Positions 1 to 34,406 of a stretch of 64,000 nt of DNA are shown piece after piece. The translations under genes were made by a program, and so were the position numbers. The stretch comes from Candidatus Saccharimonadia bacterium (GTDB taxonomy: Bacteria; Patescibacteriota; Saccharimonadia; UBA4664): contig JBBRSS010000001.1 in NCBI GenBank assembly GCA_038245115.1, forward strand, positions 25,234 through 89,233. The letters are read 5' to 3'. Position 1 is the stretch's first letter. Each line of letters starts with the position of its first letter. The notes beneath the pieces are model-generated. The model made no database searches. It was given only the letters and a program-made list of their open reading frames with translations, and had not been told where the DNA came from.

Positions 1-1299
1 AATTTCGGCGATTCTACCATCACCGGCGAACGCAACGAAGAGCGCCTCTACGAGCTCATCTGGAAGCGCACCGTGGCCTCGCAGATGGCCGACGCCCGCC
101 TAGAGCGCACCACTGCCCACATTAATATCTCCACCCGCCCCGAGCTACTGACCGCCAAAGGCGAGGTTGTGCTATTTGATGGCTTCCTCAAACTATATCT
201 GGCCCAAGACACCGACGAGGACACGGAAGAGGAGGGGATACTGCCGCCCATTACAGCCGGCCAAGTCCTACCGCTAAACACCATGCTCGCCGCCCAGCTC
301 TACGACCGCCCCAAGCCCCGCTACACCGAAGCCAGCCTCGTGAAGCGCCTCGAAGAAATGGGTATTGGCCGGCCGTCAACCTACGCCCCAACCATCTCCA
401 CTATCCAAGACCGCGGCTACATCGAAAAAGGCGACCTGGAGGGCAAGGAGCGCCAATTGCACCGCCTCACGCTCGCTGCCGGTACCATCACCGAAGAAAC
501 CGCCACCGAAATGGCCGGCGCCGACCGCAACAAGCTCTTCCCTACGTCTATTGGCATGGTCGTCAATGATTTCCTGGTCAAAAATTTCCCCGAAGTCGTA
601 GATTACCAGTTCACCAAGAAGGTCGAAGAGGAGTTCGACCAAATCGCGGACGGCAAGCAGGCCTGGAACGCTATGATCGCCAAATTCTACGAGCGCTTCC
701 ACCCCACCGTCGTTGAAGTCGGCGGCGAAAAAGGCGAACGTCCCGAAGACCGCGAGCTGGGAGCCGACCCAGCTAGCGGCAAGCGCATCATCGCCCGCTT
801 AGGGCGCTTTGGCCCCATGGTCCAAATGGGCGACCGTGACGACGAAGACAAAAAATTTGCCCCTCTCCCCCCCGGTACCATGATCCACAATGTCACCCTC
901 GAACAAGCCCTCGAGATGTTCCGTCTGCCGCGCGTGTTGGGCGAAACTCCAGATGGCAAAGAAATCACCACCAACGCCGGTCGCTTCGGACCTTACATTA
1001 AATGGAACGGCCTGTATGCCTCCATCAAGCCCGATGATCCTTTTACTATCACCCTGGAACGCGCTCTCGAACTAGTTATCGATAAAGAATCCGCCGAAGC
1101 CAATAAATACATTAAGCAGTTCGAAGGCACCACCGTAGCCATCGTTAACGGACGGTACGGCCCCTATATCACCGATGGCAAGAAGAACGCCAAGATCCCC
1201 AAGGACACTGCTCCAGAGTCGATTGATTTAAAACAAGCTCAAGCCCTCATCGATGCCGCGCCTGCCAAATCAAAGCGCCACCGAATTGTAAAATCATAG
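1..1299 (+). CDS. topA: DNA topoisomerase I, 3' portion (gene starts upstream of window)
   Basis: The frame is open from position 1. The translation contains the topo IA motif SLVKRLEEMGIGRPSTYAP and C-terminal repeated GRFGPY/GRYGPY modules. Confidence 0.85.
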   Translation, partial: NFGDSTITGERNEERLYELIWKRTVASQMADARLERTTAHINISTRPELLTAKGEVVLFDGFLKLYLAQDTDEDTEEEGILPPITAGQVLPLNTMLAAQLYDRPKPRYTEASLVKRLEEMGIGRPSTYAPTISTIQDRGYIEKGDLEGKERQLHRLTLAAGTITEETATEMAGADRNKLFPTSIGMVVNDFLVKNFPEVVDYQFTKKVEEEFDQIADGKQAWNAMIAKFYERFHPTVVEVGGEKGERPEDRELGADPASGKRIIARLGRFGPMVQMGDRDDEDKKFAPLPPGTMIHNVTLEQALEMFRLPRVLGETPDGKEITTNAGRFGPYIKWNGLYASIKPDDPFTITLERALELVIDKESAEANKYIKQFEGTTVAIVNGRYGPYITDGKKNAKIPKDTAPESIDLKQAQALIDAAPAKSKRHRIVKS

Positions 1300-3912: not shown

Positions 3913-5016
3913 ATGCAAGACCTTATCCGCCAGCTCCAAAGCCTCATCTCCGGGATCAACAGCGCCATCTCCAAGCTCGGCATCGAAGCCGACCGCAAAG
4001 CCGCTGCTCAGCTACGCCAGCGTACTCTGGACCCGAACTTTTGGTCCGATACCGCCGCAGCCTCGGATGTATCTCGGCGCTTAGCTGCACTCGACCGCCA
4101 TGTCGATTTTTGGAACAACCTTCTCGCCGAAGCTACCGAAGCGCTAGAGTTGGCCCGTCTCGAACAAAACGGCACTGATTCAGATCTCATCGACCAAATT
4201 CGCAGCCTGTACGAAACCGCCCAAACCGAATACGACCGCCGGCAATTTGAGCTCAAACTCTCCGGCCCGCACGACCGCTCATCGGCCATTGTCGAAATCC
4301 ACGCCGGCACCGGCGGCACCGACGCTCAGGATTGGGCTGAAATGCTCGAGCGCATGTACTTGCGCTGGGCCGAACGCGAGGGCTTTAGCGCCGAAATTGC
4401 CTCCATCTCGGCCGGCGAAGAAGCCGGCATCAAAAGCGCAACCTTCGAGGTCAACGGCCCCTACGCCTACGGCAAACTCAAGGGCGAAGCCGGCGTCCAC
4501 CGCCTCGTGCGGCTGAGCCCCTACAACTCCGACAACCTCCGCCAAACCTCCTTCGCCCTCGTGGAAGTGTTGCCTCAAATAGAGAACGAAGCCGAGCTCG
4601 AAATTGACGCCAAGGATCTGCGCATCGACGTGTACCGCTCGGGCGGCCACGGCGGCCAATCGGTCAACACTACCGACTCTGCCGTGCGCATCACTCATCT
4701 GCCCACCGGCCTGGTCGTGGCGATTCAAAACGAGCGTTCGCAACTTCAAAACAAAGAAAAGGCCATGGCCATCCTGCGCTCTCGCCTAGCCACCATGATG
4801 GAGGCTCAAGCCAAAGCCAGCCTCACAGAACTGCGCGCCAGTGACAAGTCGGCCGAATGGGGGAGCCAGATCCGCAATTACGTCCTCCACCCCTACACCA
4901 AGGTCAAAGATGTCCGTACCGGCGCCGAAACCAACCAAGCCCAAGACGTCCTCGATGGCGACCTTGAACTCTTCATGGAAGCCTACCTGCAGAGTCAGAT
5001 CGGTCCCCAAAAATAA
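3913..5016 (+). CDS. prfB: peptide chain release factor 2, single uninterrupted ORF
   Basis: The GGQ motif appears in RSGGHGGQSVNTTDS. An RF2-type SPY(F) tripeptide region is present. The protein is 367 aa and contains no internal in-frame stop. Confidence 0.85.
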   Translation: MQDLIRQLQSLISGINSAISKLGIEADRKAAAQLRQRTLDPNFWSDTAAASDVSRRLAALDRHVDFWNNLLAEATEALELARLEQNGTDSDLIDQIRSLYETAQTEYDRRQFELKLSGPHDRSSAIVEIHAGTGGTDAQDWAEMLERMYLRWAEREGFSAEIASISAGEEAGIKSATFEVNGPYAYGKLKGEAGVHRLVRLSPYNSDNLRQTSFALVEVLPQIENEAELEIDAKDLRIDVYRSGGHGGQSVNTTDSAVRITHLPTGLVVAIQNERSQLQNKEKAMAILRSRLATMMEAQAKASLTELRASDKSAEWGSQIRNYVLHPYTKVKDVRTGAETNQAQDVLDGDLELFMEAYLQSQIGPQK

Positions 5017-12502: not shown

Positions 12503-13645
12503 TTATATCTTCCTCAATAACAATAATTGCCGTCCGACGACTTGATCCGCACGAGCATAAAGTGGTGGGCCGGATAACCCACGAAAACTCTTAAGAGTGT
12601 AGCCTAAACGAGCCAGTTCGTCAATCATCCCCAGATAGTGCCAATCGTTACCGATGCGCCAGGCAGGTACGCACAAACTAACCTCGCCGCCAGAGGCAAG
12701 TTGAGTCGCCCAGTTCGCCAAAGCGGCCTCATAGAGCGCCCGTAGTTCAGTCCGAACCTCCTTGAGCTCACCCGGGCTCGGTGAACGCATAAGATTGGGG
12801 CCCAAATAACCCTCACTCACGACCGCGCATCCATCCGGCAGCGCCACCTCTCGAGCGTCCGCCAACTCCGCCTTCCATTTCGGCAGCTGCTGCGAAACTT
12901 GCTGCTGTAGCCAAGTCAGATTAGTGCGAGTTGCCGCCACCATCTCCTCTGAGAGATCGGACCCCTGCGCAACGCGTCCCAACAGTAACGCTTCCTGAGG
13001 TATTACCCCCGTCCCGCAAAATGGGTCGTAAACTAACGATGCCTGCACCGAGTTCACCAGTATCTGTGCCAACTTCGGCGGCAGCATACCAACCCTCGCA
13101 CTTCTAGCTGGGCGATCATAGTCGCGGCGCGAGTACCAATCTATATCCTGCACGCCCAATGTCCGTGCTACGACCATCTCAGCTCCACTGGCGATCACCA
13201 ACAGCTCAAACCCATCCTCAATCACCCGGTTATAGTGCAGCTCAGCCGCCGACACTACCAGTCCCTTAGACGCCATTACGAATCGTACCGAACCGCCGGC
13301 CCGCTCACGCAAAGTATTTTTTAGCTCAAGCCCAGCAGCCATCAGCATCTTCGGCGTATCTTTAAACCCGTAGGCGCTAATCGAAAACGGTGTTTTACCC
13401 TCTGCTTGTACCGGCAGCTGCTCCACATTCACCGGCAGGGCGCGCAAGGCTGTCACCGGACCGCGATATAGAACTTCTGCAACCTTAACGGTTCCCCCCA
13501 GCCGATCCGTGTGTACGGCTTCGCTAATCAACGCTGCCTGCCGACCAAACGACTGCACCTGCTCACGACCCAGCACGCACTCCAGCTCCACGAGCCCAAG
13601 CTCCGGCTGCCGACCCAATATTGTAATGTAATTTAGTGACGACAT
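12503..13645 (-). CDS. putative RNA (guanine-N2-type) SAM-dependent methyltransferase with N-terminal THUMP-like domain (Trm14/TrmN/RlmL-like)
   Basis: Class I MTase motif I VYDPFCGTGVIPQEA follows an N-terminal RNA-binding-like domain. It is co-oriented with rpmA and separated from it by only 3 nt. Confidence 0.5.
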   Translation of the reverse strand: MSSLNYITILGRQPELGLVELECVLGREQVQSFGRQAALISEAVHTDRLGGTVKVAEVLYRGPVTALRALPVNVEQLPVQAEGKTPFSISAYGFKDTPKMLMAAGLELKNTLRERAGGSVRFVMASKGLVVSAAELHYNRVIEDGFELLVIASGAEMVVARTLGVQDIDWYSRRDYDRPARSARVGMLPPKLAQILVNSVQASLVYDPFCGTGVIPQEALLLGRVAQGSDLSEEMVAATRTNLTWLQQQVSQQLPKWKAELADAREVALPDGCAVVSEGYLGPNLMRSPSPGELKEVRTELRALYEAALANWATQLASGGEVSLCVPAWRIGNDWHYLGMIDELARLGYTLKSFRGLSGPPLYARADQVVGRQLLLLRKI

Positions 13646-13751
13646 AATCTAACAATTATAGCAAGTTTACCGAATTAATACTACCAGACCAAAACCACCT
13701 GCGGGTAATCAGCCGCATACCGGTGCAAAAAAATACTCTTGAAAAGTTTTT

Positions 13752-13778
13752 GGGGGGCGGGGATTAACCCCGCCCCCC
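13752..13778. terminator. GC-rich hairpin (probable terminator/insulator between phoH2 and MTase-rpmA operon)
   Basis: A perfect 11-bp stem (ggggggcgggg / ccccgcccccc) with loop attaa is adjacent to an A/T tract (aaaagttttt). Confidence 0.35.
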
Positions 13779-13799
13779 TCAACCCTTGCTATGTAGCTA

Positions 13800-15152
13800 C
13801 TACGGCATCATGAGCGCTTCGAAGCCGCCCTTGCACTTGGCGAATTTGCCGCTGTACCGTGGCCTTACCGGCAAGTCGTCCCGCAGGATGCTCGCAGCCG
13901 AAGCTGCAATCCTCGACCTTACGGCATCCACCAGCTCGACATGGCCAAACAAGGGGTTGCCACGGTACTCCTCGATGATGGCGGCAATGCCATCATGCCT
14001 GCCAACGCGAGGGTTGTCGCGCTGATCGACATCGTGGGTTAATATGACTCTCGATCCCTCACCGATCCTTTCGATCAAGTTCAGTAGCGCAATGCGCTCG
14101 AAGGATTGGGCTTCGTCCACGATCACAAAGCAGTTGTGGAATGTTCGCCCTCTGATGTGTGTCACCGGAATAATCTCCAGGCTACCACTATTGAACACAC
14201 CGTCGATCTGCGCGACATTTTCGACACTGTCGAATATCGCTTGGGTCCACGGCTCCATCTTCTCCGCCTGAGTTCCAGGCAAATAGCCGAGGTCAGCTCC
14301 TGCCACCTCATCGATGGGACGAATCACGATGATCTTCTTGGCTTGACCGCTGTTAATGGCGTGAAGACCTGCAACTACTGCGATAACGGTCTTGCCCGTA
14401 CCCGCCCTTCCACCGAGCGAGACAATTCCGATATCCGGATCACGCAAAAGGTCGAACGCCAACAGCTGCTCAGGATTGCGCGCCGTCAGTGAATCCTTGC
14501 CCAAGGGCAGTTTTTCCACTCGCCGTACGACACCGTCCTTACAAAGCCGTGTCAACACCGTCTGTCCGCTAGGTATGACCATCTTGAAGCCGGTGTTCAC
14601 GGGTACCTCATCGGTGGTAGCTAGCCGGCAACGCCCTTCCTCAACCGCCGCCAGAGTTTCGTTCGCTACATGGACCGTTTCGATACCAGTCCACGCGGTA
14701 TCCGCCTGGACCCGTCGGTAGTCCTCCACCCTGATTCCAAGGGAGGAGGCCATAAGACGCGTTGCCATATCCTTTGAGACCAGAGTGACGTTTTCGCCTT
14801 TTTCCATAAGGTTGTATGCCACCAACAAGATGCGCGACATGTCGTCAGTCTGGAATCCAGCCGGCAACTTGCCGGGTCCTACGTGGTTGACCTCCACCCT
14901 GAGCGTCCCACCTTTGTCATTCAGTGGAATGTCGACGTCTAGACGCCCGTGGTCCTCGCGCAAGCTGTCGATCTGGGCCAAAGCCGCAAGCGCCCGCCCG
15001 CCAACCTCAGGGTCACGGCGCTTGGCCTGGAGCTGAGGTATGACGACCAGTGGCACTACCACTGGATGCTCATCGAACCGGTCGAACGCTCGAGGGTCCG
15101 CGAGCAGAACCGACGCATCAATCACATAGGTCCTGCGGGCTCCGTTACTCAT
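13800..15152 (-). CDS. PhoH2-type protein: N-terminal PIN domain fused to PhoH-like ATPase
   Basis: The PIN-like N-terminus (YVIDASVLLADP) is followed by a PhoH ATPase with Walker A GRAGTGKT. The start was chosen at ATG 15152, which is preceded by GGAGAGG at 6 nt. Confidence 0.8.
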   Translation of the reverse strand: MSNGARRTYVIDASVLLADPRAFDRFDEHPVVVPLVVIPQLQAKRRDPEVGGRALAALAQIDSLREDHGRLDVDIPLNDKGGTLRVEVNHVGPGKLPAGFQTDDMSRILLVAYNLMEKGENVTLVSKDMATRLMASSLGIRVEDYRRVQADTAWTGIETVHVANETLAAVEEGRCRLATTDEVPVNTGFKMVIPSGQTVLTRLCKDGVVRRVEKLPLGKDSLTARNPEQLLAFDLLRDPDIGIVSLGGRAGTGKTVIAVVAGLHAINSGQAKKIIVIRPIDEVAGADLGYLPGTQAEKMEPWTQAIFDSVENVAQIDGVFNSGSLEIIPVTHIRGRTFHNCFVIVDEAQSFERIALLNLIERIGEGSRVILTHDVDQRDNPRVGRHDGIAAIIEEYRGNPLFGHVELVDAVRSRIAASAASILRDDLPVRPRYSGKFAKCKGGFEALMMP

Positions 15153-15320
15153 GATGTACCTCTCCAAACGGGGTGCGAGGGTTGTTTTGTCGATGATCAC
15201 GGCCATATTGGCCGCATAAGATATACGATATAATATTCTACAGTATCAGTCAAAGATCTGAATCTGATGGCAACTCAGAGTTGTTGACAAACAATTCAAC
15301 GATTCCATAAGATATAGCCA

Positions 15321-15425
15321 TGGGTAGCATAAGCACAAATCTTAGACGTGCAGAGATATGGCTCACATCCCATGTATACCGTTCTCAGCACTGAACCGCC
15401 CATTTCCGGGCGGTTCTTTTGAAAT
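15321..15425 (+). ncRNA. candidate small RNA (unclassified)
   Basis: TTGACA (15285-15290) is followed by an 18-nt spacer and a TAAGAT -10-like hexamer. The transcript would contain a ccatggg/cccatg stem and end at an intrinsic terminator (gaaccgccc atttcc gggcggttc + ttttgaaat, 15394-15425). There is no coding potential. Confidence 0.3.
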
Positions 15426-15521
15426 CCAGAGTGAAAGGCGCGTAACAACTTCTAAGTTCTACCTGAGCCAACCAGGCACAGGAAGCTCGCGGAGGTTCCG
15501 CGATGATCGGAGGGGTAACCC

Positions 15522-15584
15522 ATGAAGTACAAGGCGACCATCGGCAGCGATATCCAGCGGCCAATGAAAGGAGGTAGGGCCTAG
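15522..15584 (+). CDS. candidate 20-codon small ORF/leader peptide (MKYKATIGSDIQRPMKGGRA)
   Basis: A canonical SD GGAGGGG (15509-15515) lies exactly 6 nt upstream of ATG. The ORF sits inside a highly structured 627-nt non-coding gap. Confidence 0.2.
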   Translation: MKYKATIGSDIQRPMKGGRA

Positions 15585-15688
15585 CCAGCCCTGCTGTACC
15601 TATCTCGCTGCCCAGCGCATGGGTTTCCGGCGGGGGAAATGAACCGCTGGTAAGTATCACTTACCTTCTCGCACCCTGGAGGCCACCC

Positions 15689-15727
15689 TAGCGGGTGTGG
15701 GGCGCATGCTGCGCCCCACACCCGCTA
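15689..15727. promoter_or_regulatory. perfect palindromic hairpin (17-bp stem) immediately upstream of xseA promoter
   Basis: The sequence tagcgggtgtggggcgc atgc tgcgccccacacccgcta has no flanking U-tract on either strand. Confidence 0.5.
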
Positions 15728-15767
15728 AAGCAATTACTTGCATGCCACCGTCCGCCAGTACTCAAGC

Positions 15768-15773
15768 TATAAT
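15768..15773 (+). promoter_or_regulatory. -10 box (TATAAT) placed for leaderless xseA transcript
   Basis: TATAAT ends 6 nt before ATG 15780, which predicts a TSS at or within 1-2 nt of the start codon. There is no SD. Confidence 0.45.
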
Positions 15774-15779
15774 ACTTAT

Positions 15780-17030
15780 ATGTCACCGCAAATTATATCT
15801 GTCAGTGAATTTCTGGCCATCATCAACGAAACCCTCAACTTCGCCTACCCCCAGGTGGTCGTAGAAGGGGAGGTCTCGGGCTTCAAAATTAGCCAGGGCA
15901 AATTTGCCTTTTTTGACCTCAAAGACGACAAAAGTCTACTTGGTTGTTTTATGATGGCCCGGGATATCAAACTGCCCATCGAAGACGGTATGAAAATCCG
16001 CGTCACCGGTGCACCAAAAGTATTTCCGAAATCCAGCCGCTTTAGCCTCACCGTGCGCGATATCGAGCTCGCCGGAGAGGGGGAGTTGCGCCGCGCCATG
16101 GAGCTGCTCAAGAAAAAACTCACTGCCGAAGGCTTGTTTGATCCCGCCCGCAAACGGCCGATTCCTAAGTTTCCTGCTCGAATTGGCCTCATCACCTCAG
16201 GAACTTCGGCGGCCTACGGTGACTTCATCAAAATTCTCGGGACGCGTTGGAGTGGGGTAGAAGTGCTGCTGGCCGACGTCAGCGTGCAAGGCCTGCAGGC
16301 GCCCGATCAGATTATTGGCGCCCTGGAATACTTCAATCATCTTAGCCCGCCGGTCGACGTCGTGGTACTCATTAGAGGCGGCGGCTCGCTCGAAGACCTC
16401 ATCGCTTTCTCCACGGAACCTGTAGCGCGCGCCGTAGCTGCCAGCCGCACGCCAATAATCGTCGGCGTCGGGCATGAAATCGACGTATCACTGTCCGACT
16501 ACGCCGCCGACCTGCGCGCCGCCACCCCTACCGATGCCGCCCGCCTGGTAGTACCCGACCGCAACGAAGTTCTCGCCCACATCAAACACCTCAGCTCGCG
16601 CCAAAGCACCTCCCTCGCATCCAGAGTCGCCCAGTACCACCTGCGCACCGACCGGGCGCTGAGCCGCCTCGAAGCAGCCCTGCGCTACCCTCGCGAACGT
16701 GTAGCCGCCCACGAAGCCAAACTCGAACGCGGCCTCGACCGTTTATTGTCCGCCGTACAATCAAGTACCCAAAATACCATTGCCTTACAGCAGCGGCTCA
16801 CCGACCGCACCAATGCACTGCTAAACCAACGCCACCAACAAATACTGAGTCTTAACCGAATTCTGCGCGGCTTCGATCCCCAGGCAGTCCTGGCTCGCGG
16901 CTACTCGATAGTTCGGGTCAACAATAAAATCCTCCGCCAAGCCAACCAAGCAGCGCCAGGAATGGGTCTCATGATACAATTGGCCAAAGGTCATATTGCT
17001 GCGGAGGTTAAAAATATCGATGACAACTAA
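15780..17030 (+). CDS. xseA: exodeoxyribonuclease VII large subunit
   Basis: An OB-fold N-terminus (ISVSEFLAIINETL...VVVEGEVSGF) and the catalytic core are present. The start was chosen at ATG 15780 in frame with the listed ORF. Confidence 0.85.
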   Translation: MSPQIISVSEFLAIINETLNFAYPQVVVEGEVSGFKISQGKFAFFDLKDDKSLLGCFMMARDIKLPIEDGMKIRVTGAPKVFPKSSRFSLTVRDIELAGEGELRRAMELLKKKLTAEGLFDPARKRPIPKFPARIGLITSGTSAAYGDFIKILGTRWSGVEVLLADVSVQGLQAPDQIIGALEYFNHLSPPVDVVVLIRGGGSLEDLIAFSTEPVARAVAASRTPIIVGVGHEIDVSLSDYAADLRAATPTDAARLVVPDRNEVLAHIKHLSSRQSTSLASRVAQYHLRTDRALSRLEAALRYPRERVAAHEAKLERGLDRLLSAVQSSTQNTIALQQRLTDRTNALLNQRHQQILSLNRILRGFDPQAVLARGYSIVRVNNKILRQANQAAPGMGLMIQLAKGHIAAEVKNIDDN

Positions 17031-32433: not shown

Positions 32434-33237
32434 CTATTTATAATATGCCTTACCGGCAATGCGCAGGTCGATGTATTCCGCCGGAGTGCGCTTCTGAGCC
32501 ACTAGCAGCCGCTGTACGGCCTTCAAGTCCGCTATCTCCTCGCTGGTACTTCTATTGGTATCAAACAGCAACCGATACCCCTTGTTAGTCTGAGCCGACA
32601 GATCAAAGGTTGTATCTTTAATGTCTAATCGTGTCACTCCAATACCGCTTTGCGCCAACTCCGCCACAATCTGACTCGCAAATTCTACGAAGTGGACCGA
32701 AGCTACCCGTTGCCCAACCTGAACCGGCAAATTACTGCCATCATAAACCACCGGGAATATCACTGGCCCCGCTGCCACACCAATGACGGTGCCGTCCTTA
32801 TCGAGGACGTAAGTTTGATTACCGGTACTCCAACCCAAGCTAGCCTGCTTGAGTGTAGAAGTTACAACAATAGTATGAAACCACTTACGCTTCACTGTCA
32901 CTGTTCGTAATGACGGATCGGTTTGTTTTAATTTTGCAATAAAATCATCCGAACTAAAAGTTACCAGATTCCCCCACCACAGATTGCCCGCCACCAATTT
33001 TCTGGATGCGGACTCTATTTCTGCCATGCGCGCCGGGGCGCTTACCGTTACCGTACGTAAGGCAAACAACTGCACTATCCCCCACCCCGCCAATAGTAGT
33101 AATACGAAAATTATCAGCCCTCTTCGCTGCAGGACACTCAGCCGCGGACGCCTTGGTCCCCTCCTTGGTCCCCTGCTCAATGGCTGTACCCGGCCGTACA
33201 CCGGACGGCCAGCCGACCTGACTATCCGCTGACTCAC
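32434..33237 (-). CDS. ftsQ: cell division protein FtsQ/DivIB
   Basis: A basic N-terminus and a single TM segment are followed by a POTRA-like domain. It sits downstream of murG in the dcw cluster. Confidence 0.75.
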   Translation of the reverse strand: MSQRIVRSAGRPVYGRVQPLSRGPRRGPRRPRLSVLQRRGLIIFVLLLLAGWGIVQLFALRTVTVSAPARMAEIESASRKLVAGNLWWGNLVTFSSDDFIAKLKQTDPSLRTVTVKRKWFHTIVVTSTLKQASLGWSTGNQTYVLDKDGTVIGVAAGPVIFPVVYDGSNLPVQVGQRVASVHFVEFASQIVAELAQSGIGVTRLDIKDTTFDLSAQTNKGYRLLFDTNRSTSEEIADLKAVQRLLVAQKRTPAEYIDLRIAGKAYYK

Positions 33238-34406
33238 TCAGTCTCCTCCGTGTTCGGTTTTTGTACAGGTTCACCCAATGCCAAGATAATTTTTCCTAAA
33301 TCTTCGGCTGCATTGGGCCGACCGAACACTTTTATAGCCGCCACCATATCCGCCTGTACAGTCTCATCACCCAGGACATAATCTATCTCGTCCGCAAATG
33401 AATCAGCCGTTAGCTTGGCTCCGTCCAACACCCGTACCGCACCCTGGCGCGACAACACGCGCGCATTCTCAACTTGATGCCCAGCCATCTCGTAATTGGG
33501 TATCAAAATCGTTGGCTTACCTAGTACGGCACTGTCATTAATAGTATTTACCCCTGCCCGACCGATCACCAAATCTGCCGCCGCCAGTGCCAACCCCATG
33601 TCGCCCATCAAGAACCCATACGGATGATAGCGGTCCGCCAACTTATATTTTGGCCGTCGGCTCAACTCAAACATTATTCGCGCAATTTCACCTTCGCCGG
33701 TCTGGTGAATAATCTGATACTTCTTTATCAACCGATCGAGACTTCCCAGAACAACGTTATTGATTTGTGCCGCCCCCTGTGAGCCGCCGGTAATCAAAAT
33801 TACCGGCACCGCCTCGTCTAGCCCAAAATGCGCAATTCCCTCCAGTCGATGTGCAGTCAAAATATCGGCCCGCACCGGGCTGCCAACATATACCAATTTG
33901 GATGGGTCGAACATGCGATAGCTCTTCACCGGAAAGCCCACGGCAATCTTATTTGCCCACCGACTCAGAATTTTATTAGTCAGCCCGGGCGTTGCATCAG
34001 ACTCGTGAATCACAAAAGGAATATTGAGCATTTTAGCCGCAATACCAACCGGTAGACACACATATCCGCCCTTCAAAAACACCACATCAGGCTTAAAGGT
34101 CCGCAGTATCCGCATTGCCTGCCCCACGCCCTGAACGGTTCGTAAGGTATCGCGCGCATTTGGCCCCAAGGTCGACAAATTGAAGATTTTGGCGAAGCCG
34201 GAGTCAAAGTGGTTTCGGCGAAATTTCCCCGCCGAAATTGGCGCGAACGTAAGTCCCGCACCCGCCACAATCTTTGCCTCCATACCGCCGGCCTGCCCTA
34301 TATAGAGCAGTTCGCCAGTACTATCGAGCAACTTTAACGCGTCGCTGGTTGCCAGCGTTGGCAAAATATGCCCCGCTGTTCCCCCGCCGCTCACGACTAC
34401 TCGCAT
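33234..34406 (-). CDS. murG: MurG, UDP-GlcNAc:lipid I GlcNAc transferase
   Basis: MRVVVSGGGTAGHILP is the N-terminus. GT28 family. Confidence 0.9.
   Translation of the reverse strand: MRVVVSGGGTAGHILPTLATSDALKLLDSTGELLYIGQAGGMEAKIVAGAGLTFAPISAGKFRRNHFDSGFAKIFNLSTLGPNARDTLRTVQGVGQAMRILRTFKPDVVFLKGGYVCLPVGIAAKMLNIPFVIHESDATPGLTNKILSRWANKIAVGFPVKSYRMFDPSKLVYVGSPVRADILTAHRLEGIAHFGLDEAVPVILITGGSQGAAQINNVVLGSLDRLIKKYQIIHQTGEGEIARIMFELSRRPKYKLADRYHPYGFLMGDMGLALAAADLVIGRAGVNTINDSAVLGKPTILIPNYEMAGHQVENARVLSRQGAVRVLDGAKLTADSFADEIDYVLGDETVQADMVAAIKVFGRPNAAEDLGKIILALGEPVQKPNTEETE

Follow-up and report, generated by a model that had tools for sequence, protein, structure and literature searches.

Comparative analysis points to a conserved, lineage-restricted non-coding element between phoH2 and xseA in Saccharibacteria

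Because Saccharibacteria genomes are tiny and densely packed, some 600 nt of selectively kept non-coding DNA is uncommon among them. Here we describe such a case, the gap between phoH2 (minus strand) and xseA (plus strand) in a 64,000-nt stretch of Candidatus Saccharimonadia bacterium, contig JBBRSS010000001.1. We refer to this stretch as the window, and coordinates are window positions unless a locus is named. Judged by comparison with its relatives, the gap is a genuine, lineage-restricted and selectively conserved non-coding element. Ordinary signals that serve the expression of phoH2, of xseA and of a small plus-strand unit make up about half of it, and some 260 nt are left without an assigned role. 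The explanation we put forward, as plausible and somewhat short of probable, is that the gap combines the divergent control region and the non-coding "cargo" of a horizontally acquired phoH2 cassette. The same tentative judgement takes in the cassette as such, which would span about 13750-15730 and would have entered one small Saccharibacteria lineage at a site between xseA and a methyltransferase gene. The relatives of its XseA protein assign the window to the Saccharibacteria/Patescibacteria, within the candidate phyla radiation (CPR).

Results and Discussion

The gap is more conserved than neutral sites and flanking genes

An earlier annotation made from the letters alone, the sequence-only reading, had singled out the gap as the longest non-coding stretch of the window. 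It probably is. The largest rival, 590 nt at 33238-33827, proved to be an artefact of crude open reading frame (ORF) tiling and is covered by a 390-aa minus-strand ORF (33234-34406); the next candidates in that tiling measure 369 nt or less. Five parts can be told apart in the gap: the phoH2 signals, a plus-strand unit, a 263-nt GC-rich segment, an 18-bp hairpin and a leaderless xseA promoter (Table 1).

We compared the gap with stretches of relatives' genomes, labelled L001, L002 and so on. L001, from the sister species UBA6017, is the closest genome with the matching phoH2-gap-xseA order (XseA 89% identical), and its gap aligns to that of the window over the full length with two 1-nt indels. 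Across the gap, further assemblies of the sister species (L024-L026) do not differ from L001 and add no distinct sequence. Identity between window and L001 is 84-85% for the whole gap, 87% for 15426-15727, which comprises the GC-rich segment and the hairpin that follows it, and 92% for a core at 15514-15628 that holds a 47-nt invariant run. The coding DNA of xseA and phoH2, at 82% and 78%, lies below the segment. The GC content of the segment, about 60%, is likewise set apart from the 37-39% of AT-rich promoter stretches (15200-15350, and 13600-13750 between phoH2 and the methyltransferase gene).

Does this identity exceed what neutral divergence would leave? The neutral rate was estimated from four-fold degenerate sites, at which window and L001 agree in 61% (xseA) and 65% (phoH2) of cases overall, with a range of 57-76%. 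Beside the gap the values are 0.73 (xseA codons 1-110) and 0.76 (phoH2 codons 1-50), and a local neutral identity of 0.75 served as the baseline of the test. The segment with its hairpin (P = 1.6e-7) and the core (P = 2e-6) are conserved above even this local level, and we therefore consider the region constrained.

The conserved segment is narrowly distributed. A genome scan through XseA recovered one sister species that carries it, and no further copies of 15426-15727 came up in genome, metagenome, viral, plasmid or phage searches. A 19-mer taken from the invariant core and run against metagenomes yielded four chance matches only, four viral scans yielded two (one of which, L027, was looked at closely and lies inside a 308-aa ORF), and blastn against plasmids and phages gave no matches to the gap.

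Could 15426-15688 be a functionless residue of an insertion, decayed donor DNA or a dead gene, whose conservation stems from a recently shared recombination tract? Its presence in just two closely related genomes, its unremarkable folding (below), the raised four-fold identity beside the gap (0.73-0.76 against 0.57) and the location in a hot spot of gene turnover would all fit such an origin. The conservation exceeds the local neutral level, however, and surpasses that of the flanking coding DNA (78-82%); no protein trace is found in six frames; and the segment is still conserved in the L001 lineage, in which phoH2 is frameshifted. We consider a functionless residue improbable.

No protein-coding frame is conserved across the gap

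Which kind of product might be under selection? A protein-coding gene or pseudogene filling the gap was considered and rejected: six-frame Pfam searches and permutation tests in every plausible frame revealed no conserved frame, and the ORF sets differ between window and L001. Nor did tblastn of the neighbouring genes of L002 and L008 against the gap reveal a protein trace, and no frame of the 15426-15688 segment shows an excess of synonymous change. Protein searches here and below used Pfam, NCBIfam, PADLOC and a database of 5.8 billion proteins. The 91-aa minus-strand ORF (15385..15660), whose translation had looked random to the sequence-only reading, is indeed non-coding; it contains stops in L001 and matches neither Pfam nor any of the 5.8 billion proteins.

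A short ORF of 20 codons, described earlier from the letters, is present behind GGAGGGG (15509-15515), a Shine-Dalgarno (SD) sequence, and a 6-nt spacer. Its 20-residue peptide might itself be the product and the conserved RNA its mRNA, with the start masked for translational control by a helix between 15514-15524 and 15618-15628. The strong SD with its spacing would fit, as would the ORF being intact and of equal length in L001 and the coincidence of the best-conserved block, invariant run included, with the ORF and the sequence immediately downstream. Three codon changes separate window and L001, all of them non-synonymous and none synonymous (permutation P = 0.61); at a third-position identity of about 0.75, zero synonymous changes over about 14 codons would not be very improbable, at an estimated chance of roughly 0.1. 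Against the peptide, the SD is weakened to AGAGGGG in L001 (G15509A), the conservation reaches well past the ORF on both sides, and the peptide resembles no known family and is too short for the databases used. We judge it quite unlikely that this peptide accounts for the segment.

Two terminator-type hairpins, and not the body of the gap, fold exceptionally

The sequence-only reading had called the gap highly structured, had recognised no known RNA family in it and had considered a large ornate or riboswitch-like RNA conceivable. The absence of a known family is borne out: none of the 4227 models of Rfam 15 reached its gathering score anywhere in the window. With the limit relaxed to E<=10, the gap drew MIR810 (25.7 bits, against a threshold of 170), RT-12 (23 against 44.2) and two others, all far below threshold, and the orthologous region of L001 drew P15, mir-666 and RcsR1 instead. 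Since the sets differ between the two genomes, we attribute these weak matches to chance. ARAGORN reported no tRNA or transfer-messenger RNA (tmRNA) gene in the 64 kb. In length (about 300 nt), GC-richness, conservation and intergenic position the region resembles large or housekeeping RNAs of Rfam (RNase P RNA, tmRNA, signal recognition particle (SRP) RNA, 6S, OLE, GOLLD, ROOL, HEARO, raiA, RT-12). Unlike these, it finds no consistent match among the models even at E<=10 and has no excess folding energy.

Fold free energies were compared with those of dinucleotide shuffles. The whole gap folds far better than expected (z = -9.0 on the plus, -7.1 on the minus strand). Without the 15689-15727 palindrome the excess vanishes: for 15426-15688 the z-scores are -1.20 (plus) and -1.39 (minus), and 26 and 20 of the 200 shuffles, respectively, fold at least as well. 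"Highly structured" thus fails as a description of the body of the gap, and the impression is owed to two terminator-type hairpins, the only exceptional folds. The helices ccagcgg/ccgctgg and cgcgga-ggt-tccgcg pointed out earlier are located in the gap, as are further 11-nt pairings at 15514-15524/15618-15628 and 15543-15553/15602-15612 and local hairpins at 15462-15482, 15487-15503, 15573-15595 and 15649-15665.

We also asked how the L001 substitutions fall on the minimum-energy fold of the window. Relative to random placement, structure is preserved with P = 0.0065 on the plus and 0.12 on the minus strand if the palindrome is included, and with P = 0.16 and 0.63 if it is not. With a 263-nt core that folds like its shuffles and preservation that is significant only with the palindrome, a large ornate or riboswitch-like RNA is unsupported. 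Of the general marks of a structured non-coding RNA (ncRNA), conservation without a coding signature was found and a fold energy beyond shuffles was not. In a joint fold of window and L001 no pair is broken, and three pairs are changed on both sides, all of them in the 15649-15665 hairpin and the palindrome.

These results bear on the possibility that 15426-15727 is an independent, novel structured ncRNA of about 300 nt, with nested helices, perhaps a pseudoknot (15554-15560/15644-15650) and perhaps a link to PhoH2 as regulator, decoy or substrate. The strong constraint without coding signal would be explained, as would the compensatory changes, the intact joint fold, the GC content relative to the promoter stretches and the long-range pairing of 11 bp between 15514-15524 and 15618-15628, in which L001 has U-G in place of the only mismatch, U-U. 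Set against this are the shuffle-like folding of the core on both strands and L001 substitutions that, palindrome aside, do not spare predicted pairs. Rfam contributes no match beyond weak ones that differ between the two genomes, the searches produced no further copies, and L008, a third locus, has phoH2 without the segment. On balance we regard an elaborately folded ncRNA as unlikely.

The changes between window and L001 hold some information on the strand. One-sided changes that leave a G-U pair on the plus strand and an A-C mismatch on the minus strand occur in the palindrome, in 15573-15595 and at 15319/15374, and the substitution pattern weakly favours a plus-strand transcript. The converse would be a minus-strand transcript from TGGCCA-N16-TATAAT (15819->15792) within the first codons of xseA, antisense to the promoter and start of that gene; it might be an RNA of about 95 nt that ends at the palindrome, or a long phoH2 leader. 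The promoter-like site scores 10/12 and lies where the divergent upstream gene of relatives must have its promoter (24 nt separate the start of that gene from xseA in L002 and L014), an L001 change in the 15393-15416 stem is G-U on the minus strand only, and minus-strand folding energies are similar to those of the plus strand. The one-sided changes listed above point the other way, and so does the preservation test, which leans to the plus strand with and without the palindrome, though without it neither strand reaches significance. Moreover, a proximal promoter region belongs to phoH2 itself and is conserved in L008, a locus without the GC-rich segment. An antisense origin seems to us improbable.

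A small transcription unit with a leaderless ORF is kept in three genomes

Upstream of the segment, the sequence-only reading had proposed a plus-strand unit made up of a TTGACA-N18-TAAGAT promoter, an internal ccatggg/cccatg stem and a hairpin with U-tract. The promoter is present, one base from where it had been placed (15284-15313, not 15285-15314). The CATGGG/CCCATG stem is found at 15319-15324/15369-15374. The hairpin, too, exists, at coordinates slightly different from those proposed: its arms GAACCGCCC and GGGCGGTTC occupy 15393-15416 and are followed by TTTT. As a G/C stem-loop with a U-run it has the form of an intrinsic terminator; it fails a stricter scan rule of at least 5 T in 8 after the stem.

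The layout of this unit is shared by the window, L001 and L008. Both promoter hexamers and their 18-nt spacing are kept (with TACGAT in L008) and the spacer sequence diverges; in each genome the -10 hexamer is followed by 6 nt and an ATG, which opens a small ORF of 24, 24 and 25 codons, respectively, and an equivalent hairpin with U-run, then TTTTGAWAATCC, overlaps the stop codon of that ORF. As promoter, ORF and terminator are kept despite the divergence of L008, we take this to be a real transcription unit, as had been suggested. Whether the ORF is translated is a separate matter. Between window and L001 it has 4 synonymous codon changes, among them a TCT->AGC replacement of all three bases (Ser to Ser), and 6 non-synonymous ones; the coding-pattern permutation gives P = 0.05, a pattern that is suggestive of translation, not conclusive. 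The peptide of L008 has no recognisable similarity to that of the window. Alternatively, 15320-15394 may be the body of a small RNA (sRNA) of about 100 nt; micro-protein gene, leader and sRNA all remain candidates.

What follows the unit differs between genomes: an SD-led gene in L008, and only non-coding sequence in the window. The L008 gene begins 35 nt after the terminator, without room for an obvious promoter of its own, which implies read-through from the promoter of the small unit. This makes the plus-strand unit look like a leader or attenuator. Leader-peptide attenuators of enteric bacteria, of the pyrBI or trp type, consist of a promoter, a very short ORF, a terminator that overlaps the end of the ORF, and downstream cargo. 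The same order is found here, with the stem starting at 15393 immediately before the ORF ends, likewise in L001 and L008, and in L008 the cargo is a protein gene. Unlike the enteric examples, the ORF here is leaderless, has no run of regulatory codons and is only predicted to be translated; an alternative antiterminator pairing did not turn up, and the window has non-coding cargo.

Table 1. Features of the gap and its surroundings in window coordinates
Feature	Position	Strand	Remarks
phoH2 terminator hairpin	13756-13778	minus	11-bp G/C stem; -31 kcal/mol, z = -3.9; left edge of the proposed cassette
phoH2	13800-15152	minus	PIN RNase fused to PhoH RNA helicase (Pfam PIN_4 + PhoH)
Gap	15153-15779		627 nt between phoH2 (minus) and xseA (plus)
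phoH2 control region	15153-15270	minus	SD, 5' untranslated region (UTR), promoter-like site, mini-ORF
phoH2 SD, GGAGAGG	15165->15159	minus	6 nt before ATG
phoH2 promoter-like site, TTGACT-N17-TATCGT	15253->15225	minus	from promoter scan
Sigma-70-type promoter, TTGACA-N18-TAAGAT	15284-15313	plus	from promoter scan
24-codon ORF	15320-15394	plus	ATG exactly 6 nt past -10 hexamer; leaderless arrangement
Predicted intrinsic terminator	15393-15421	plus	9-bp G/C stem, 6-nt loop, UUUU; overlaps stop codon of small ORF
GC-rich non-coding segment	15426-15688	plus	263 nt; in window and L001 only
SD and 20-codon ORF	15509-15584	plus	ORF at 15522-15584; start codon in 5' arm of 15514-15524/15618-15628 pairing
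Perfect hairpin	15689-15727	plus	39 nt; 18-nt arms, 3-nt loop, no U-tract
xseA -10 box TATAAT, 6 nt, ATG	15768-15782	plus	leaderless start
xseA	15780-17030	plus	

An 18-bp hairpin precedes a leaderless xseA start

The palindrome downstream of the segment is perfect and spans 39 nt, as had been noted, with a stem of 18 bp and not 17. It does not abut the xseA -10 box, as had also been claimed, since TATAAT at 15768-15773 starts 40 nt further on. Its free energy is -40.2 kcal/mol (z = -7.9), and no other perfect hairpin in the 64 kb is as long. L001 shows two compensatory pair changes in it and one change from G-C to G-U, the latter on the plus strand. It lacks the U-run of an intrinsic terminator: on the plus strand AAAGCAAUUAC comes next, on the minus strand GGGUGGCCUCC. 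Stem-loop terminators without a U-tract ("I-shaped") and 3'-end stabilisers have been described in Actinobacteria, and the hairpin is like these in being a long perfect G/C stem without U-run that lies between two units and shows compensatory changes. It is unlike them in that the organism also uses hairpin-plus-U terminators, in that the stem is unusually long for the window, and in that termination here is a prediction. Its likely role is that of a 3' end or insulator of the plus-strand unit.

The start of xseA follows its -10 box at 6 nt, a geometry shared by seven loci (the window, L001, L002, L014, L016, L017 and L022). Within the window, xseA and at least four other long ORFs, at 3913(+), 27287(+), 51776(-) and 58537(-), start 6-7 nt after a near-consensus -10 and have no SD. 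Taken together, these seven loci and five window starts indicate that leaderless starts are apparently used in this lineage.

Does the gap serve as a cis-acting attenuator of xseAB or phoH2, as the sequence-only reading had considered? Relatives have xseA with a leaderless -10 and no similar spacer (L002, L014-L016 and L017-L023), so that a co-occurrence of xseA with the leader was not found, and L008 has phoH2 without 15426-15727. This leaves a cis-attenuator for either gene unsupported and indicates that the segment is no obligatory regulator of either.

phoH2 and the gap form an insertion at a variable junction

In seven relatives, L017-L023 (77%), a methyltransferase gene lies beside xseA, separated from it by 80-266 nt without similarity to the gap; in the window this methyltransferase gene is the one beyond phoH2. 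From relatives in which methyltransferase and xseA are direct neighbours we conclude that phoH2 and the gap are an insertion into a variable junction. In L002, L014 and L015 (85-86%) the upstream neighbour of xseA, at a distance of 24 nt, is a HAD-like gene; in L016 (81%) another, unrelated gene takes that place. The insertion of phoH2 with adjoining gap occurs in only three known lineages, those of the window, L001 and L008.

Of the arrangement in the window, L008 (77%) retains the methyltransferase gene, phoH2, the first ~115 nt of the gap and the promoter/terminator unit. Where the window has 15426-15727, L008 has an SD-led PD-(D/E)xK-like ORF of 162 aa. The slot after the small leader unit seems able to take different cargo. 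Covarying G/C hairpins mark both edges of the cassette; the stem at the left edge covaries among window, L001 and L008.

Separately, the junction upstream of xseA is a hot spot of gene turnover, occupied by the methyltransferase gene, the HAD-like hydrolase gene, an unrelated gene or the phoH2 cassette. The L008 ORF lies at 122-610 (minus strand, locus coordinates), carries the PD-(D/E)xK-like motif KPDFYLPEYNIYLEV and gives weak PADLOC matches.

Where does phoH2 come from? Its product matches NCBIfam NF053827, "RNA 5'-3' helicase PhoH2", with E = 3e-143 and 477.7 bits, and the curated cutoff of 680 is not reached. Among the 5.8 billion proteins only two close relatives were found, 77% and 75% identical, the next best being proteins of Actinobacteria at 51-53%, and the remaining matches, at about 50-53%, were all to Actinobacteria as well; this distribution points to horizontal acquisition. 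It suggests that PhoH2 was transferred into the Saccharibacteria clade from Actinobacteria, the phylum that usually hosts Saccharibacteria. PADLOC returned only weak partial matches of PhoH2 to defence-system models.

In the sister species (L001 2016-3373; also L024-L026) a frameshift splits phoH2 shortly beyond the VIVDEAQ motif, after residue ~357. In another frame, 76% identity persists over the 95 C-terminal residues. The split gene appears in three independent assemblies of the species, and the upstream non-coding segment stays conserved.

Other origins for the gap sequence were examined and set aside. Terminal inverted repeats, as of a miniature inverted-repeat transposable element, were sought; inverted repeats of 19 nt (74%) and 9 nt that span the gap are at the estimated chance level and show no covariation in L001. 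Motifs of oriC, dif or parS are not visible in the gap, and no GC-skew switch occurs there.

A model of the cassette and the points that weigh against it

How might the parts work together? Leftward, the first ~115 nt would supply the SD, 5' UTR and promoter of phoH2. Rightward, the sigma-70-type promoter would start an RNA at or beside the ATG, giving about 100 nt with the leaderless 24-codon frame and the intrinsic terminator. Read-through of this terminator, presumed by analogy with L008, would yield a transcript of the 263-nt segment, which would end, or be stabilised, at the 18-bp hairpin; the hairpin would also shield the leaderless xseA promoter downstream. Translation of the small ORF could gate the read-through, because a ribosome at the end of that ORF would sit on the 5' arm of the terminator. 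Our best guess for the 263-nt segment is a lineage-specific ncRNA or 3' extension that acts by its sequence, through base-pairing or protein binding, and not by an elaborate fold.

Several observations weigh against this model. The transcripts, with their strand and ends, the read-through and the gating are all predicted, and for the gating no antiterminator structure is evident in folds of the plus-strand unit. The GC-rich segment has no conserved promoter directly upstream. The promoter-like minus-strand site inside the start of xseA could drive an antisense transcript, and the L001 substitution in the 15393-15416 stem makes A-C on the plus and G-U on the minus strand. The segment is known from two distinct sequences only, which affords no covariation statistic. 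Finally, near the gap the four-fold identity rises somewhat, from 0.57 to 0.73 (Fisher P = 0.04), and part of the conservation could for this reason reflect a younger recombination tract.

PhoH2 proteins are widespread and poorly understood RNA helicase-RNases. In mycobacteria, phoAT and phoH2 share a strand and a transcript, and the PhoAT protein binds PhoH2, as stated in PMC7390352 with reference to Andrews & Arcus 2015. Like the mycobacterial arrangement, all three Saccharibacteria phoH2 loci have a very small ORF immediately upstream of phoH2. Unlike phoAT as that article presents it (PMC7390352), the small ORF 15320-15394 is divergent, on the opposite strand, and is not arranged for co-transcription with phoH2; the two were compared by arrangement. 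One may ask whether the ~300 nt of 15426-15727 are an ncRNA of a mobile cassette that works with or on PhoH2, as antitoxin, decoy or specificity factor, and is gated by translation of the leaderless ORF. We think this rather improbable.

We see the segment as a cassette-borne leader, sRNA or non-coding transcript; it makes no new RNA class as yet, and the chance of a PhoH2-associated regulatory RNA is small. In the main, the comparison documents an insertion confined to one lineage and equipped with ordinary signals, leaderless starts in a CPR bacterium for which the sequence evidence is good, and a conserved segment of 260 nt that is still unexplained. As a conserved companion of phoH2, the small ORF or RNA unit might give a clue to the control of PhoH2 outside mycobacteria.

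The divergent phoH2 control region

The phoH2 control region is about 80-85% conserved across the window, L001 and L008. In its leader, 7 nt after TATCGT, lies a 6-codon mini-ORF (15217->15197, minus strand) that reads MRPIWP* in the window, MRPIKP* in L001 and MRPLRS* in L008, with ATG and TGA kept in all three; possibly this is an upstream ORF with a leaderless start. The -10 regions of the two divergent promoters are overlapped by a direct repeat of 11 nt, CATAAGATATA, whose copies at 15215-15225 and 15306-15316 match perfectly. Kept in L001 and absent from L008, this repeat could be an operator or reflect mere similarity of the two promoters.

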